A DNA stretch of 64,000 nucleotides from a virus. The notes under the pieces are model-generated. The model had not been told where the DNA came from and ran no database searches. It was given only the letters and a program-made list of their open reading frames with translations. Positions within the stretch are counted from its first letter, which is position 1, and every line of letters starts with the position of its first letter. Positions 16,569 through 24,134 of the stretch are shown here, piece by piece. Location: the IMG/VR virus record IMGVR_UViG_3300025600_000001, positions 32,001 through 96,000 of that record. One strand, written 5' to 3'. The position numbers and the translations under genes are program-made.

Positions 16569-17387
16569 ATGTATAACAAGAATAGAAAAGAGCAAGTTAA
16601 AAATCTTTGGGATACTGGATTAGGAGCTACAGAAATATCTAAATTTTTAAATATTTCAATAAGTAATGTTTCAACTTATTTAACACAATCCTTAGGATCA
16701 GGTAGAAAAGGAAGATTTATTTATAAAAGAAGAATATTTACGCTAAATGAATCTTTTTTTGAAAATATAGATACAGAAGCAAAAGCTTATTTTTTAGGAC
16801 TACTTGCTGCAGATGGTAATTTAAGTAGTTCTCAGAATTCAGTTAGAATAGGATTGCATGAAAAAGATAAAGAAATATTAGAGTGTTTTCGAGAAAATCT
16901 AAATTATACAAAACCTCTAAAATTTGTTAAAAAAGTTAAAGAACCTGGATGGAATAGAAGTGATCAGTATTTATTAGAAATAAGCTCAACTATTTTTAGG
17001 AAAAGTTTAGAGAAACATGGATTAACACCAAACAAATCTCTCACATTAGTTTTCCCAACAACTATTCCTTTAGAGTATCAACATGATTATATTAGAGGAT
17101 ATTTTGATGGTAATGGTTGTATTCATATAGACAAACGAGATCACGGTAGTATAATTATTGCTAGTAGTGAGATGTTTTCTAAAAGTCTTATTGAAGTATT
17201 ACAAACTTTTGGTATTAGATCAAGTACATCTAAACACTATAAAGCTAATTGTTTTTATACTCGTTCATTTGGATATGATAATGTAGAGAATTTTTATAAT
17301 TTCATGTATAAAGATTCTACTATTTTTCTTGATAGAAAAAAACAAATATTTGAAAATTGGATAAATAAAAGAAATAAGAAATTATGA
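16569..17387 (+). CDS. LAGLIDADG homing endonuclease with N-terminal HTH
   Basis: YFLGLLAADG and YIRGYFDGNG motifs; promoter-like TATCTTTA at 16546-16553. Confidence 0.9.
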   Translation: MYNKNRKEQVKNLWDTGLGATEISKFLNISISNVSTYLTQSLGSGRKGRFIYKRRIFTLNESFFENIDTEAKAYFLGLLAADGNLSSSQNSVRIGLHEKDKEILECFRENLNYTKPLKFVKKVKEPGWNRSDQYLLEISSTIFRKSLEKHGLTPNKSLTLVFPTTIPLEYQHDYIRGYFDGNGCIHIDKRDHGSIIIASSEMFSKSLIEVLQTFGIRSSTSKHYKANCFYTRSFGYDNVENFYNFMYKDSTIFLDRKKQIFENWINKRNKKL

Positions 17388-17800
17388 AATATTCAAAACT
17401 AATATTAACTACAGAATCTATAGAAAGTGTTATTGAGAAAATTAAACTAAATACACTATCCGCTTATCAATGGTTTCCTGTTAGAGGAAAAAATAAATGT
17501 TTCTATGAATTAGGAGGAAGGAATTATGAAAATACTCTTGAAATAAAAGCATATATTCCTAGTAGAGAAGATGATAAATATGTAGTTCATGCAAATGGGA
17601 TGATTAAATGTGAGTATTCTTTAACAGATTGGGGAGAAATAGAATTTCCTACTTTTTGTATAAAGTTTCCAAAAATTAAAAATATAGAAAGTATGATAAA
17701 TTTTCTAAAAACTACAGATTTTAAAAGTTATTACCCAAAAATAGAAGAAGAAAGAAGAAGATCACAAGAATATGAAACTATTTATATATGTAAATCATGA
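17384..17800 (+). CDS. Hypothetical protein
   Basis: 138 aa with ATGA overlaps. Confidence 0.6.
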   Translation: MKYSKLILTTESIESVIEKIKLNTLSAYQWFPVRGKNKCFYELGGRNYENTLEIKAYIPSREDDKYVVHANGMIKCEYSLTDWGEIEFPTFCIKFPKIKNIESMINFLKTTDFKSYYPKIEEERRRSQEYETIYICKS

Positions 17801-19187: not shown

Positions 19188-19588
19188 TGGAAATATGTAT
19201 TGATTTTGATGGAACTTGTGTAACACATGACTATCCAAATATAGGTAAAGATATAGGTGCAGTATCTGTATTAAGACAACTTATAGAGAAAGGTCATAGA
19301 TTAATCTTATTTACAATGAGAGGTGATAGAGTAAATGATGATCTTACTATGGGAACAACTTTAACTAATGCTATAAATTGGTTTAAAGAAAATGATATAC
19401 CTTTATATGGAATTAATCGTAATCCTGATCAACGTAGTTGGACTACAAGTCCTAAAGCCTATGCTCAATTATATATTGATGATGCTGCTTTAGGTTGTCC
19501 TTTAACATCTGATCTAGTAATATCAGATAGACCTTTTGTAGACTGGTACGAAGTTTTAAATTTATTAATAGATAAAGGAATATTATGA
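19187..19588 (+). CDS. HAD-family phosphatase-like protein
   Basis: ICIDFDGTCV, LFTMR, KAYAQLYIDD. Confidence 0.85.
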   Translation: MEICIDFDGTCVTHDYPNIGKDIGAVSVLRQLIEKGHRLILFTMRGDRVNDDLTMGTTLTNAINWFKENDIPLYGINRNPDQRSWTTSPKAYAQLYIDDAALGCPLTSDLVISDRPFVDWYEVLNLLIDKGIL

Positions 19589-19818
19589 GAAAATCAATCA
19601 CATTTTTAACTTTGGAAATAGAAGTAGAATTTGACTATCAACCAGAAGAAAAGGAAGTAAGAACTCTTTCAAATGGTGATCCTGGTTATCCAGGATATCC
19701 TGCTTCAGTAGAAATTAGTAATATTTATTTCAAAGGAGATGATATTACTTCTTTTTTTGAAGAATCAGGACTTATTTATAAATTAGAAGAACAAATATTA
19801 ACAGAAATTAAAAATTAA
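19585..19818 (+). CDS. Hypothetical protein
   Basis: 77 aa; NGDPGYPGYP motif. Confidence 0.65.
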   Translation: MRKSITFLTLEIEVEFDYQPEEKEVRTLSNGDPGYPGYPASVEISNIYFKGDDITSFFEESGLIYKLEEQILTEIKN

Positions 19819-19823
19819 ACAAA

Positions 19824-20015
19824 ATGGAAACTGTAAAAAATCCAGTAGTAATTTCAAACAACGTATTTAAAGGTGTAGTATGGAACAAAAAATCCATTAA
19901 GGCAGTAAATAAAGTTGCACAAGCTTTATTGAATCTCACAGAGTTATTTAAAAGCCAAAACATCAAAATTGATTGTATGATAAAGGTTAATGATGAAAGT
20001 GAAAAACAAATTTAA
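19824..20015 (+). CDS. Hypothetical protein
   Basis: 63 aa ORF. Confidence 0.55.
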   Translation: METVKNPVVISNNVFKGVVWNKKSIKAVNKVAQALLNLTELFKSQNIKIDCMIKVNDESEKQI

Positions 20016-20028
20016 AAATTAAATTAAA

Positions 20029-20118
20029 ATGTCAGACATTAAGACGTACAAAGTATCACAAGCAGCAATGCTAGCAGTGCTGCCACCAGAATCCACAAGA
20101 ACGTATAATTCTTCATAA
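20029..20118 (+). pseudogene. Stranded 5' relic of the DUF932-like gene
   Basis: MSDIKTYKVSQAAMLAVLPPESTRTYNSS-stop versus MKESYSVSKAMLISTPIPESTRTYKS. Confidence 0.88.
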
Positions 20119-20120
20119 AT

Positions 20121-20151
20121 TTTGAAATGTCATAGGAATTAGTTACATTTG
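20121..20151 (+). promoter_or_regulatory. Bacteroidota-type promoter for the GIY-YIG cassette
   Basis: TTTG-N19-TACATTTG; the ATG at 20156 follows 4 nt later. Confidence 0.75.
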
Positions 20152-20155
20152 GAAT

Positions 20156-21127
20156 ATGAAAAATATAACTATAAATTTTATATTAGCAAGAACTTCTGCT
20201 AATTATGAAGATATACATTGTACTGGTATATATAGAATATATCACATCATTAAACCATCTATTTTTTACATTGGAAGTGCTTCTTCTAATAAAAGATGGA
20301 GAGAGGGTTTTAAACAACGATGGGTAGAACATATCAAAGAACTTCGTAAAAACATTCATCATTCTCCATTCTTACAAAGAGTTATTAATTTATATGGAAT
20401 AGAAGGATTAAGATTTGAAATAATTGAAAAATGTGAATCTTCTATATGCATACGTAAAGAACAATTTTGGTTAGATTTTTATAAACCATTTAAAAATAAA
20501 GGTTATAATACTTGTAAAATTGCAGGAAGTTCTATGGGTTATAAATTTTCTGAAGATCAAATAAAAAATAGAAAAAAAATATTTCAATATGATTTAAAAG
20601 GTAAATTCATTGAAGAATATAAAAGTTTAACTGATGCAGCAAAACAAACAAATACTAGAATTAATGAAATCAAAGATTGTGCTAAAAAAAGAATACAATA
20701 TACGAAAGGACATATATGGAGATATGAAAAAGAAAGTGTAGATTCTATATTTCATATTAAGATTTTTAAGATAGCGTGCTACTTTGATGGACAATTTCAA
20801 TTTGTAGATTCTTTACAAAAAGTAGAAGAAAAAACAAAAGTCCATAAAAAGTTTATTTATAACTGTATTAATAAAAATCTAAATAAAACATCTAATAATT
20901 GGTTATTTAGAAAATACGATATTGAAAATTGTCCAGAAAAAATTGATTGTGTTACAGTATTAAGATATAAATATGAACTTATAGAAAATGAAAAATCTAT
21001 CATTTTTAATACGTTAATATTATTAACAAGTTATTTAAAAGTTCATAGAAAATATTTTGAAGAAAAAATGAAAGTAACAAATGAAATAGTTTTTAATAAT
21101 AAAATAATTAAAAAATTAATAAAATGA
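20156..21127 (+). CDS. GIY-YIG homing endonuclease with NUMOD1
   Basis: TGIYRIY...FYIGS, EQFWLD, YNTCKIAGS, QYDLKG. Confidence 0.9.
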   Translation: MKNITINFILARTSANYEDIHCTGIYRIYHIIKPSIFYIGSASSNKRWREGFKQRWVEHIKELRKNIHHSPFLQRVINLYGIEGLRFEIIEKCESSICIRKEQFWLDFYKPFKNKGYNTCKIAGSSMGYKFSEDQIKNRKKIFQYDLKGKFIEEYKSLTDAAKQTNTRINEIKDCAKKRIQYTKGHIWRYEKESVDSIFHIKIFKIACYFDGQFQFVDSLQKVEEKTKVHKKFIYNCINKNLNKTSNNWLFRKYDIENCPEKIDCVTVLRYKYELIENEKSIIFNTLILLTSYLKVHRKYFEEKMKVTNEIVFNNKIIKKLIK

Positions 21128-21999
21128 AAGAAAGTTATTCAGTTTCTAAAGCAATGTTAATAAGTACACCTATACCAGAGAGTACTCGTACTTATAAAAG
21201 TTTTTCTCACAAACAGTTAATAGATTTAACTCTTGAGGGTATTCACCATGCAGGATTTCAAGTGGGAAAAGAATTATATTCTTCTGCAAAAGATGGTCTT
21301 GTAGCTAATGGAAGATATACTATAGCAAATATAGCTGATTCAGAAATGCAATTACAAATTACATGGAGAAATAGTTATAATAAAAGTTTACCACTAACCT
21401 TTTCACTCGGTGCTATGGTGTTAGTATGTTCCAATGGAATGCAAAAATCTCAAGGAATGGGATCTTTTAAGAAAAAACATCAAGGACAAATTCAAAGTTT
21501 TACTCCACAAGCTATAGGCGAATACATCAAAGGAGCTGAAGAAGTATTTAAACAAATGCAAATAGAAAGAGAGCAAATGAAACAAGTCACACTCTCAAGA
21601 ACGCTGCAAGCAGAGATTATAGGAAAAATGTTTATAGAAGCAGAATTTATTAAGTCTACTCAATTGAATATTATCAAAAGAGAACTTGATAATCCTACAC
21701 ATGATTATGGAGATCCTAATAGTTTGTGGTCATTGTATAATTATACAACTTTTGCAATGCGTGAATTGCATCCATCTTTATATCTACAGGATCATATTGA
21801 TGCTCATTCATTCTTTGTCACTGAATCAGGAATCATAGTTAATACTCCTGAACCTATTACAATTCGTCCTGTAGAAGATAAGAGACAATTAAACTTGTTT
21901 GATGAACTTCTTAATCAAGAAACAGAAGAAGTCTTGGCTGAAGTGTATAATAGTGAAGAAGAAGAAGAAGAGGAAGAATGGGAACCAGAACAACTATAG
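21124..21999 (+). CDS. DUF932/DUF945-like protein
   Basis: WRNSYNKS...GAMVLVCSNG...KKKH and SLWSLYNYTT motifs; acidic tail. Confidence 0.75.
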   Translation: MKESYSVSKAMLISTPIPESTRTYKSFSHKQLIDLTLEGIHHAGFQVGKELYSSAKDGLVANGRYTIANIADSEMQLQITWRNSYNKSLPLTFSLGAMVLVCSNGMQKSQGMGSFKKKHQGQIQSFTPQAIGEYIKGAEEVFKQMQIEREQMKQVTLSRTLQAEIIGKMFIEAEFIKSTQLNIIKRELDNPTHDYGDPNSLWSLYNYTTFAMRELHPSLYLQDHIDAHSFFVTESGIIVNTPEPITIRPVEDKRQLNLFDELLNQETEEVLAEVYNSEEEEEEEEWEPEQL

Positions 22000-22220
22000 G
22001 TGCAAAACCTGCAATAGTAAAAGTTCCAGGAACTTTTATTAAGATTGGTGATTACAGAATAATAAAATCAAGTGTGAAGAGGTATCAACCAAGTAAAAAT
22101 GGATATATCAACATCTATTTTAACTCCTCAATAAATCATCCTGATTTTAAGAGTTTTCACTATACATCAACTAAGTTACAACAAGAAGTTTTAGACTATT
22201 TAGATTCAATTTATTTATGA
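21978..22220 (+). CDS. Hypothetical protein
   Basis: 80 aa; its stop overlaps the ATG of the UDG relic. Confidence 0.55.
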   Translation: MGTRTTIGAKPAIVKVPGTFIKIGDYRIIKSSVKRYQPSKNGYINIYFNSSINHPDFKSFHYTSTKLQQEVLDYLDSIYL

Positions 22221-22345
22221 ACAAAAGTAAAACAATACTATCAGAAGAGGCTTTTGAGCCTCTTTTTGGTAGTTGGTGGCCTAAGATTAACAAATTCTCT
22301 GTTATTTTATTTGTATATTCTACTTATTTAGTATATATTTGTTAG
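22217..22345 (+). pseudogene. Stranded 5' relic of the uracil-DNA glycosylase gene
   Basis: MNKSKTILSEEAFEPLFGSWWPKIN... versus MNNLDWKKFEPLFGTWALKIK. Similarity ends near 22290 and the frame runs on to a TAG in the promoter region. Confidence 0.85.
22310..22341 (+). promoter_or_regulatory. Bacteroidota-type promoter for the LAGLIDADG cassette
   Basis: TTTG-N20-TATATTTG. Confidence 0.75.
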
Positions 22346-22369
22346 ATTAATTTAATACAACATTACTAT

Positions 22370-23350
22370 ATGACATATTTTAAACTTACTCCAGAAATTC
22401 ATAAAAATATAGCAGATGAATATATTTCATCTATAACTACTCAACAAGATTTAGCAAAAAAATATAATGTTAGTACAGTTATGATTTCAAATATATTAAA
22501 AAAATTTAAAATTCCTACAGATCATCGAAGAGGATTTTATAATGTAGATATTAATTATTTTAAAATTATAGATACACCTAATAAATCATATTTTTTAGGT
22601 TTATTTCATGCCGATGGAAGTAACTCTGAGGAGCATAACTGTGTTAGAATTTCTTTACAGGAAAAGGATAAAGAAATATTAGAAAAATTAAAAAAAGATA
22701 TAAAATATTCAGGTCCTTTATATTATTTAAAAAAACAAGGAAATAGAAGTAATCAATTTTCATTAAATATTGTAGCAAAAGAATTATCACAAGATTTGGT
22801 AATTCTAGGTTATCCTAAGAATAAAACTTACAAAGTAGTATTTCCAGAATACTTAGAACAGTCATTAGTAAGACATTTTATTAGAGGATTGTTCGATGGA
22901 GATGGATGTATTCATGCTAAATATAAACATAGTTTAAGTATCGTTGGTACATGTAATACTTTGTTAGGAGTAAAAGATTATTTACAAGAAATATTAAATA
23001 TAAATTCTGTAATAGTAGAAAGTAAATCTAAAAATATATTTAGATTAAGTATATGTAAAAAGATAGATATATTCAATACATTATGTCATTTATATGAAAA
23101 TAGTGAATTGTATTTACAAAGAAAATATGACATCTTTCATCAAGTGTACATGATTCAGAAAGAACATTTATATTGGCAAATATACTGTAAAAATTTAAAA
23201 ACTAATGAAATTAATATTTTTAAAAATATGCAAGAAACTAAAGAATTTTTTGGATTAAAATCCTATGCAGCAATATCTTATTGTATCCATAAAAGTAAAA
23301 CTAAAATTTTTAGAAAAACGTATTATATAAATTTATTGAAAAATGAATAA
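22370..23350 (+). CDS. LAGLIDADG homing endonuclease with N-terminal HTH
   Basis: YFLGLFHADG and FIRGLFDGDG motifs. Confidence 0.9.
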   Translation: MTYFKLTPEIHKNIADEYISSITTQQDLAKKYNVSTVMISNILKKFKIPTDHRRGFYNVDINYFKIIDTPNKSYFLGLFHADGSNSEEHNCVRISLQEKDKEILEKLKKDIKYSGPLYYLKKQGNRSNQFSLNIVAKELSQDLVILGYPKNKTYKVVFPEYLEQSLVRHFIRGLFDGDGCIHAKYKHSLSIVGTCNTLLGVKDYLQEILNINSVIVESKSKNIFRLSICKKIDIFNTLCHLYENSELYLQRKYDIFHQVYMIQKEHLYWQIYCKNLKTNEINIFKNMQETKEFFGLKSYAAISYCIHKSKTKIFRKTYYINLLKNE

Positions 23351-24134
23351 TTTAGATTGGAAGAAATTCGAACCACTTTTTGGTACATGGGCTTTAAAAA
23401 TAAAGCCTTTTTTTGACTTAGGAGGTTTTGATAAAATATATGAGTTTCTTAAAAAAGAGTCAAAAAGAGGTAAAGAAATCGCACCTATGTCATCTCTTGT
23501 ATTTAGAGCATTTCGAGAGACAGACATAAATACTCTTAAAGTAGTAATTGTTGGTTTAGCACCATATCATACCTTTTATAATGGATCGTCTATTGCGGAT
23601 GGTTTGTGTATGAGTTGTTCTATTACTAGTAGATTACAACCTAGTCTTTCTAATTTCTATAATGCTATAGAACGAGAACTTTATAATGGACTTAATTTAA
23701 ATATGTATAAAAATCCAGATCTTACCTATTTAGCCAGAGACGGAATTCTTCTATTGAACTATGCTCTCACCACTAGTAAAAATAAACCAGGGGATCATTG
23801 TGTTCTTTGGGAACCTTTTATGAAATTTCTATTTGAACAGGTGTTAGATACTATTGGAGCTCCTGTTATTTTCTTAGGACGTGAAGCAGCCAAACTAGAG
23901 AGATATACAATGCCTTTTAATTGGATATTTAAGTTATCTCATCCTGCCTCAGCAAGTTATCAAGGTATCGAATGGGATTCTGAAGGAACATTTAAAACTA
24001 TAAATAAGATTTTATGGGAGCGAAATAAAGAAACGATAAATTGGTTACAATTAGATAGTATAAACGAAAAGGAGATAAAAAATGAAGACAAAGTTAAAAA
24101 ACCAGGAAAACCTAAATTTAGAAGTTCAAATTAA
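23343..24134 (+). CDS. ung: Uracil-DNA glycosylase (family 1-like)
   Basis: KVVIVGLAPY (GQDPY variant), ADGLCMS, PSL, GILLLNYALT, HPAS. The usual catalytic Asp is replaced. Confidence 0.8.
   Translation: MNNLDWKKFEPLFGTWALKIKPFFDLGGFDKIYEFLKKESKRGKEIAPMSSLVFRAFRETDINTLKVVIVGLAPYHTFYNGSSIADGLCMSCSITSRLQPSLSNFYNAIERELYNGLNLNMYKNPDLTYLARDGILLLNYALTTSKNKPGDHCVLWEPFMKFLFEQVLDTIGAPVIFLGREAAKLERYTMPFNWIFKLSHPASASYQGIEWDSEGTFKTINKILWERNKETINWLQLDSINEKEIKNEDKVKKPGKPKFRSSN

Follow-up and report, generated by a model that had tools for sequence, protein, structure and literature searches.

In a 64-kb window of phage DNA (64,000 nucleotides (nt); bases 32001-96000 of the 117,568-bp uncultured-phage record IMGVR_UViG_3300025600_000001, which has direct terminal repeats and is rated complete), we analysed a DUF932 gene that follows a free-standing GIY-YIG homing endonuclease gene and a short remnant of a DUF932 gene start, the stub. 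Stub and live gene encode the same heptapeptide, PESTRTY, with mostly different codons, which the first-pass annotation of this DNA had attributed to selection for immunity to the enzyme or against deletion by recombination. According to our analysis, a resident gene of one allele type (type A) was probably invaded by a cassette from a phage with a diverged allele (type B), and the two spellings of PESTRTY are probably those of two old alleles, with no targeted selection. The gene is chimeric, relatives of it lack the endonuclease, synonymous divergence is evenly saturated along the imported tract, and the insertion point recurs in two other phage lineages.

The arrangement of the region is given in Table 1. 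The stub starts with an ATG at 20029 and has its stop at 20116-20118, and its 29 codons encode the peptide MSDIKTYKVSQAAMLAVLPPESTRTYNSS. The PESTRTY of the live gene, at 21175-21195, reads CCA GAG AGT ACT CGT ACT TAT and differs from that of the stub in five of the seven codons, including TCC/AGT for Ser and AGA/CGT for Arg. After TAT AA, the stub continues with T TCT TCA TAA and the live gene with A AGT TTT TCT CAC. The identical peptide, the five recoded codons and the end of homology at TAT AA (20108), as described in the first-pass annotation, are thereby borne out. The live protein belongs to DUF932, as amino acids (aa) 72-209 match PF06067 (E 1.8e-8, 34.9 bits at a gathering cut-off of 23). 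A blastn search at a distant setting with 19800-22300 gave no match in the annotated phage collection.

Table 1 Features of the cassette region. Positions are those of the window; pS, proportion of synonymous differences; L070, a relative without the endonuclease
Feature	Position	Strand	Remarks
Stub (relic)	20029..20118	+	Resident type A DUF932 start: first 26 codons MSDIKTYKVSQAAMLAVLPPESTRTY, then 3 junction codons and stop
PESTRTY codons of the stub	20086..20106	+	CCA GAA TCC ACA AGA ACG TAT
Left end of imported DNA, spacer	20109..20155	+	Promoter-like TTTG 20121-20124, N19, TACATTTG 20144-20151 (pattern match)
Free-standing GIY-YIG/NUMOD1 homing endonuclease gene, I-TevI-like	20156..21127	+	323 aa
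Live chimeric DUF932 gene	21124..21999	+	291 aa; ATG overlaps the endonuclease stop (ATGA)
Replacement gene start, supplied with the endonuclease	21124..21197	+	24 codons + AA; contains the second PESTRTY
Co-imported type B gene body, 3' of the insertion point	21198..21810	+	0.64 nt identity to L070; pS 0.63
Native type A tail of the DUF932 gene	21811..21999	+	0.91 nt identity to L070; pS 0.33

From 1521 candidates, a protein search retained 1065 DUF932 homologues (E<=0.001). One of these, P0006, is 65% identical to the live DUF932 protein overall; its start agrees with the stub at 24 of 26 residues, and its end is nearly that of the window protein. Another protein from this search, P0001, is encoded without any difference in 5 contigs. 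A metagenome scan provided DNA relatives of P0006, L069 (97% to P0006) and L070 (96%). Both have an uninterrupted DUF932 gene of 295 aa without an endonuclease at the codon in question. Homologous enzymes occupy the same codon in the loci L116/L115 and L055, so that presence and absence of the element are polymorphic at one defined site. Window, L069 and L070 have a common gene order (a primase-like gene, a small open reading frame (ORF) just 5' of DUF932, DUF932 and an 80-aa gene); L070 additionally has a 133-aa gene between the primase-like gene and the small ORF. The flanks of L069 and L070 are 83-89% identical to the window at the nt level, and the match continues through the stub (95.7% and 90.3%, respectively, over 20016-20108). 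It ends at 20108; in L070 it begins again at 21212.

Judged by sequence, the stub is a remnant of the native gene start and not a chance match, because 76 of 80 nt agree with the gene start of L069 and 72 of 80 with that of L070, in the same gene order. By comparison, only 33 of 72 nt agree between the stub and the inserted copy. The synonymous distance (dS, NG86 method) of the stub is 0.18 to L069 and 0.32 to L070, within the range of the distance of 0.40 between these two. Its PESTRTY is spelled as in L069 and L070 but for the final two codons, which in these relatives are ACG/ACT and TAC. Directly 5' of the stub lies a 63-aa ORF (19824-20015), where L069 and L070 have only 12-18 nt. It had no Pfam or PHROG match and, by tblastn at E<=1e-4, no match in 122 loci; it may have come with the imported DNA or have been inserted separately.

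The codons of the live gene were aligned with those of L069 and L070 (alignment column 225 corresponds to window position 21790). Over columns 1-229, with the seven site codons excluded, the identity to L070 is 0.64 at the nt level and 137 of 219 residues are identical; from column 230 on, the nt identity is 0.91. Conserved degenerate residues have the same codon as L070 in 63 of 122 cases (52%) in columns 1-229 outside the site and in 50 of 60 cases from column 230. The pS to L070 is 0.65 for codons 1-26, 0.63 for columns 27-231 and 0.33 for the tail, and the corresponding values to L069 are 0.86, 0.65 and 0.28; L069 and L070 differ from each other with a pS of 0.31. In sliding windows of 30 codons, pS stays at 0.49-0.81 until column 211 and is 0.21-0.45 from column 226. 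Over the near-saturated tract, dS to L070 is about 1.4-1.5. The recombination boundary, at which identity rises from 0.64 to 0.91, is located at about 21790-21811. The foreign tract is about 1.7 kb long (20109 to about 21800) and comprises the spacer, the endonuclease gene, the 24-codon start and about 600 bp of gene body, altogether about 225 codons of DUF932. The first-pass annotation had named two findings in advance that would together speak against selected recoding, equal synonymous saturation and equal behaviour of both sites towards the enzyme. The first is what we observed: divergence is equally saturated across the imported tract and drops only in the native tail.

The protein closest to the imported part is P0002 (77%), a type B protein which reads PESTRTYKSFS; further type B relatives are P0005 and P0007-P0009. 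PESTRTY itself is found in both types, as it occurs in P0002 and in the type A proteins P0006, P0020 and P0044.

Metagenome data also contain the alternative alleles. In two peat metagenome runs (X1 and X2), minor contigs with a depth of 12-17 (main form, 271-547) fit the window from 21790/21791 on, and their loose ends before this position are exactly the type A sequence of L069/L070. The same runs hold low-depth contigs (9-17) of related phages, which diverge at 19585 and upstream of 21790 in DUF932 (21790-21838). As X1 and X2 hold both the main form of the window and these low-depth related contigs, endonuclease-bearing phages and type A relatives co-occur in one habitat. No contig joins across the endonuclease, as would be anticipated given that alleles without the enzyme share <80% identity over the 600 bp that follow. 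A joint from 19579 to 21102 (side 21) was disregarded, as it is a short match of low likeness and comes from a run, X3, with only 0.05 of the words.

Is the recoding at PESTRTY special? Within the imported tract, two or fewer kept codons are found in 26 of 123 sliding sets of seven conserved residues (21%), and the binomial estimate for at most two of seven kept codons at the background of 52% is about 0.2. The codon family, which changes for Ser and Arg at the site, also changes for 6 of the 14 conserved Ser/Arg residues in the remainder of the tract. The site is present in 104 of the 122 fetched loci, which correspond to 59 unique DNAs, and 57 of these have no homologous endonuclease adjoining the gene. 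Among the 57, the codons of the live site occur individually (ACT in 7, CGT in 7, ACT in 26, TAT in 29 and AAA in 38), Arg at the site is encoded by CGN in 14 of 42, and the L048 group spells PESTRTY in further ways. These comparisons suggest that the recoding is ordinary divergence of two alleles, not more than background, with no special recoding detectable.

Loci with a cassette at the same codon provide a second comparison. L116 and L115, found by a search with the endonuclease, are identical to each other over the 1.4 kb compared around the cassette. L055 was found by a re-scan of all loci. The window enzyme shares 135 of 255 aa with that of L116 and 130 of 253 with that of L055, and the latter two share 172 of 255. 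In L116 and L055, the enzyme gene lies directly 5' of DUF932 and directly 3' of a short ORF encoding a DUF932 start. These stubs end with ...PIPQQTKSYKP-stop (L116) and ...NIPQQTRTYKKK-stop (L055), 0-2 codons past the same TAT. All three cassettes have the duplicated target-gene end on the far side of the endonuclease gene, and the replaced end is the 5' end. The stubs of L116 and L055 are type B-like and their live genes belong to another allele type; hence, the enzyme moves between allele types and not with one fixed start. In a search for endonuclease-free relatives of these two lineages, the best matches to the stubs reached only 72-76% over 59-77 nt, besides one 30-nt match at 90%. The layout of stub, endonuclease gene and live gene, with the insertion point after the Tyr-Lys codons, is upheld by the uninterrupted genes of L069 and L070 and the stubs of L116 and L055; the selected recoding that the first-pass annotation had added to it is not.

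Conserved residues of stub and replacement start have the same codon in 7 of 11 cases in L116, 6 of 9 in L055 and 3 of 11 in the window, and L116 at its stub site and L055 at its live site both read ACA AAA AGT TAT AAA. Because L116 and L055 keep most codons and share this sequence, heavy recoding just 5' of the junction appears not to be general in this element family; the enzymes differ, however, and may differ in specificity. Identity between stub and replacement start is 33/72 (window), 41/69 and 37/75 nt in the three cassettes, and the longest exact run is 7 nt in each. At these values, recombinational loss of the insert is predicted to be unlikely, which would follow from transfer between alleles without further selection.

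An endonuclease search in the first 46 viral loci gave only four weak matches (24-29% identity), none directly 5' of DUF932. Distant GIY-YIG homologues (26-28% identical to the window enzyme) lie just 3' of DUF932 in L028 (3327-3872), L052 (3464-4006) and L054 (5068-5610). Endonuclease genes seem to be drawn to both flanks of DUF932.

The product of the 20156-21127 ORF has GIY and YIG motifs about 10 residues apart at its N-terminus (TGIYRIYHIIKPSIFYIGSA), which align with the motifs of I-TevI, and its residues 23-120 align to the I-TevI catalytic domain in the PDB (1LN0/1MK0, E 6e-6). In this alignment, kqRW, rkEqfW and gyN line up with the positions of Arg, Glu and Asn in I-TevI, which are catalytic residues of GIY-YIG enzymes. 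A NUMOD1 domain at aa 140-176 (E 2e-8, 34.7 bits at a cut-off of 22.8) forms a separate C-terminal DNA-binding module. The Pfam GIY-YIG model did not match at E<=0.01, and NUMOD1 alone was reported; the PHROG matches, phrog_314 (1.7e-8) and phrog_5123 (1.4e-4), are both homing endonucleases. We accept the ORF as a predicted I-TevI-like free-standing GIY-YIG homing endonuclease gene. Like the T4 enzyme, its product would be modular, with a catalytic domain and a C-terminal DNA-binding part. It differs from I-TevI in that it is not intron-encoded, has low similarity to it, has a different target and contains a longer unmatched C-terminal region.

The spacer 5' of this gene contains a promoter-like element, the final box of which, TACATTTG, ends 4 nt 5' of the endonuclease ATG. 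TTTG-N18-21-TAnnTTTG is a promoter consensus of Bacteroidota. From about TTCATAAA on, the spacer can be aligned across the cassettes of the window, L116 and L055, and a TTTG...TAnnTTT-like element is common to all. The consensus is not enriched in the window (4 matches, 3.21 expected; 37 of 100 shuffles reach 4). Notable is only that two of the four strict matches (20121-20151 and 22310-22341, + strand) sit directly 5' of two endonuclease genes. This hints at host-type promoters that belong to the endonuclease cassettes themselves and at a host from the Bacteroidota, and the element at 20121-20151 is a candidate for promoter function.

The following sequence of events would account for the present structure. 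A cassette consisting of the promoter-like spacer, the GIY-YIG/NUMOD1 endonuclease gene and a replacement start coupled to it by ATGA would have invaded the resident type A gene immediately behind codons 26-27, which encode the Tyr-Lys of the conserved T-R-T-Y-K motif. The likely donor is a phage whose DUF932 gene is a strongly diverged allele of type B. The enzyme presumably cuts endonuclease-free DUF932 alleles at or near the TRTYK motif, and in a co-infected cell, the break would be repaired from the cassette-bearing genome, with stub and gene body serving as the two homology arms. Double-strand-break repair would then have copied the cassette and about 600 bp of donor gene body, with a crossover at about 21790-21811, and left the old gene start behind as a dead 26-codon stub. 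The rebuilt gene would be expressed together with the enzyme from the promoter-like element of the cassette, with its -7-like box, and its site may escape cutting by virtue of the differences between the imported and the sensitive allele.

Protection of the live allele can also be thought of as the cause of the recoding: the enzyme would recognise the PESTRTY DNA, and only respelled cassettes would avoid cutting themselves. In favour of this idea, the cassette rebuilds a complete gene and insertion alone leaves the site, so that some sequence difference must protect the live allele. The WHO elements of Torulaspora and Lachancea yeasts, which target FBA1, gain resistance in this way through allelic differences; the resistant allele deviates at 3 of the 7 bases of the core (Coughlan et al. 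2020, PMC7282813). By analogy, immunity via an allelic difference is plausible for the phage as well. Selection of the seven codons for this purpose is nevertheless unlikely in our estimation. Synonymous divergence is equally high over the whole 680-bp tract, the first 26 codons are about as diverged from L070 as the following columns, and about a fifth of comparable windows are as recoded as the site. In addition, most codons by the junction are kept between stub and live copy in L116 and L055, and the L116 stub, which was once a target, has the same five codons as the live copy of L055, although the specificities of these enzymes may differ. The recognition site may also lie 3' of the junction, in sequence which the stub lacks. 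The other proposal of the first-pass annotation was that divergence was selected because similar direct repeats flanking the endonuclease gene would recombine and delete it. The short exact runs and low identities in all three cassettes agree with this proposal, but the same outcome is automatic when a cassette moves between diverged alleles, divergence continues for about 600 bp past the repeat, where deletion is unaffected, and three cassettes are too few to argue from survivorship. We therefore consider it very improbable. Least credible of all is a duplication of the gene start within the lineage at the insertion of the endonuclease, followed by divergence of the copies in place. Both copies do carry the uncommon Glu-Ser before TRTY, where most relatives have other residues. 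However, Glu-Ser occurs in both allele types elsewhere (P0002, P0006, P0020, P0044 and L048), and duplication in place was rejected because the stub is close to L069 and L070, far closer than the live start, and because divergence extends through the tract, far beyond the duplicated part.

Several points weigh against an import of an ordinary type B allele, as we prefer to read the region. The site keeps two of seven codons at a tract mean of 52%, which places it in about the lowest fifth of windows, and the exact 15-mer of the live site occurs in none of the 57 endonuclease-free alleles; both also speak for selected immunity. The stub/replacement pair of the window is more recoded than those of L116 and L055. 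Since the nearest type B allele, P0002, was compared as protein only, a site-specific change on the type B background may have been added. The donor may itself have had a type A stub, which then came in together with the cassette. Finally, X1 and X2 are possibly the source of the window itself and so give no independent support for the main form.

Additional endonuclease genes lie near the DUF932 cassette. A second cassette of the same layout is found at 22217-24134 and consists of a 42-codon stub (22217-22345), a LAGLIDADG endonuclease gene (22370-23350, by Pfam) and a 263-aa ORF (23343-24134), whose start shares FEPLFG-W--K-K with the stub. This stub is matched 35/35 by the final 35 codons of L070. 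In L069 (2662-4265), the homologue of the 263-aa ORF (72% identical) is preceded by a different, GIY-YIG-looking ORF of 274 aa that overlaps its start. A further LAGLIDADG endonuclease gene (16569-17387, 272 aa; LAGLIDADG_3, E 2.8e-13) overlaps the start of the ORF 17384-17800.

The DUF932 cassette is a 5'-end, phage, GIY-YIG form of gene-end-replacing homing events that have already been published. In WHO elements, an FBA1 fragment is the second homology region; as in the window, the endonuclease gene travels with a replacement target-gene end, the old end is displaced as a fragment and the target becomes chimeric. However, WHO elements replace the 3' end in a eukaryotic chromosome, use an intein-derived LAGLIDADG/zinc-finger enzyme, and have been shown to cleave in an allele-specific manner (Coughlan et al. 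2020). The window cassette replaces a 5' end in a phage, encodes a predicted GIY-YIG enzyme, and has its own promoter-like element and the ATGA overlap. Fungal mitochondrial mORFs, which encode LAGLIDADG or GIY-YIG enzymes, are inserted together with a foreign gene end and produce gene hybrids (Beaudet et al. 2013, PMC3630166, citing Allomyces atp6). Their displaced native C-terminal ends are 91-98% identical to endonuclease-free relatives and 64-81% to the inserted copy at the nt level, with a nearly unchanged protein (PMC3630166). This is the same signature of one peptide and different DNA as in the window, although mORFs replace the C-terminal end and are often in frame with the gene (PMC3630166), whereas the window has an exchanged N-terminal end and about 600 bp of co-converted body.

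Among phages, small ORFs beside endonuclease genes in the homing endonuclease gene (HEG) islands of ICP1-like vibriophages are fragments of neighbouring essential genes and were proposed to be recombination substrates; the text on these fragments gives no start-replacing layout, insertion codon or coupled replacement start (Barth et al. 2023 preprint, PMC10055350). In our literature search, no start-replacing GIY-YIG cassette in a phage DUF932 gene was found, although similar fragments may appear in the figures and supplements of PMC10055350. In the window, the insertion lies inside a coding region and a stub remains. The nearest phage mechanism is the intronless homing of T4-type free-standing endonucleases (SegF, SegG, SegB and MobE), in which flanking DNA is co-converted and mosaic genes arise. 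As in the window, a free-standing GIY-YIG gene sits beside its target gene in a phage and spreads by break repair, but the T4 genes are located between genes and are not known to leave a duplicated fragment or stub.

A broader interpretation, to which we give somewhat less than even credence, is that the cassette is a phage 5'-end mirror of the WHO elements. By this analogy, a self-contained unit of stub-arm, own promoter, GIY-YIG enzyme and replacement start would be spreading among the DUF932 genes of Bacteroidota-type phages, with the stub as upstream arm and the imported allele as the uncuttable one. Junction differences, including some of the PESTRTY codons, would then be the immunity determinant, though of ordinary allelic origin.

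Together with the endonuclease-free relatives, the case shows a homing endonuclease inside a phage protein gene without an intron or intein. With the cassette comes a new start for the gene, and over about 600 bp the resident coding sequence is replaced by that of a foreign allele. Mosaic phage genes arise from such cassettes, as do short orphan ORFs, which annotation pipelines miscall. An identical peptide with different codons by an endonuclease gene is the expected footprint of the import of a diverged allele, and codon differences near an endonuclease are not evidence of selected immunity without a comparison to the background. With three independent cassettes at one codon, the region encoding T-R-T-Y-K is a defined candidate target of these enzymes.

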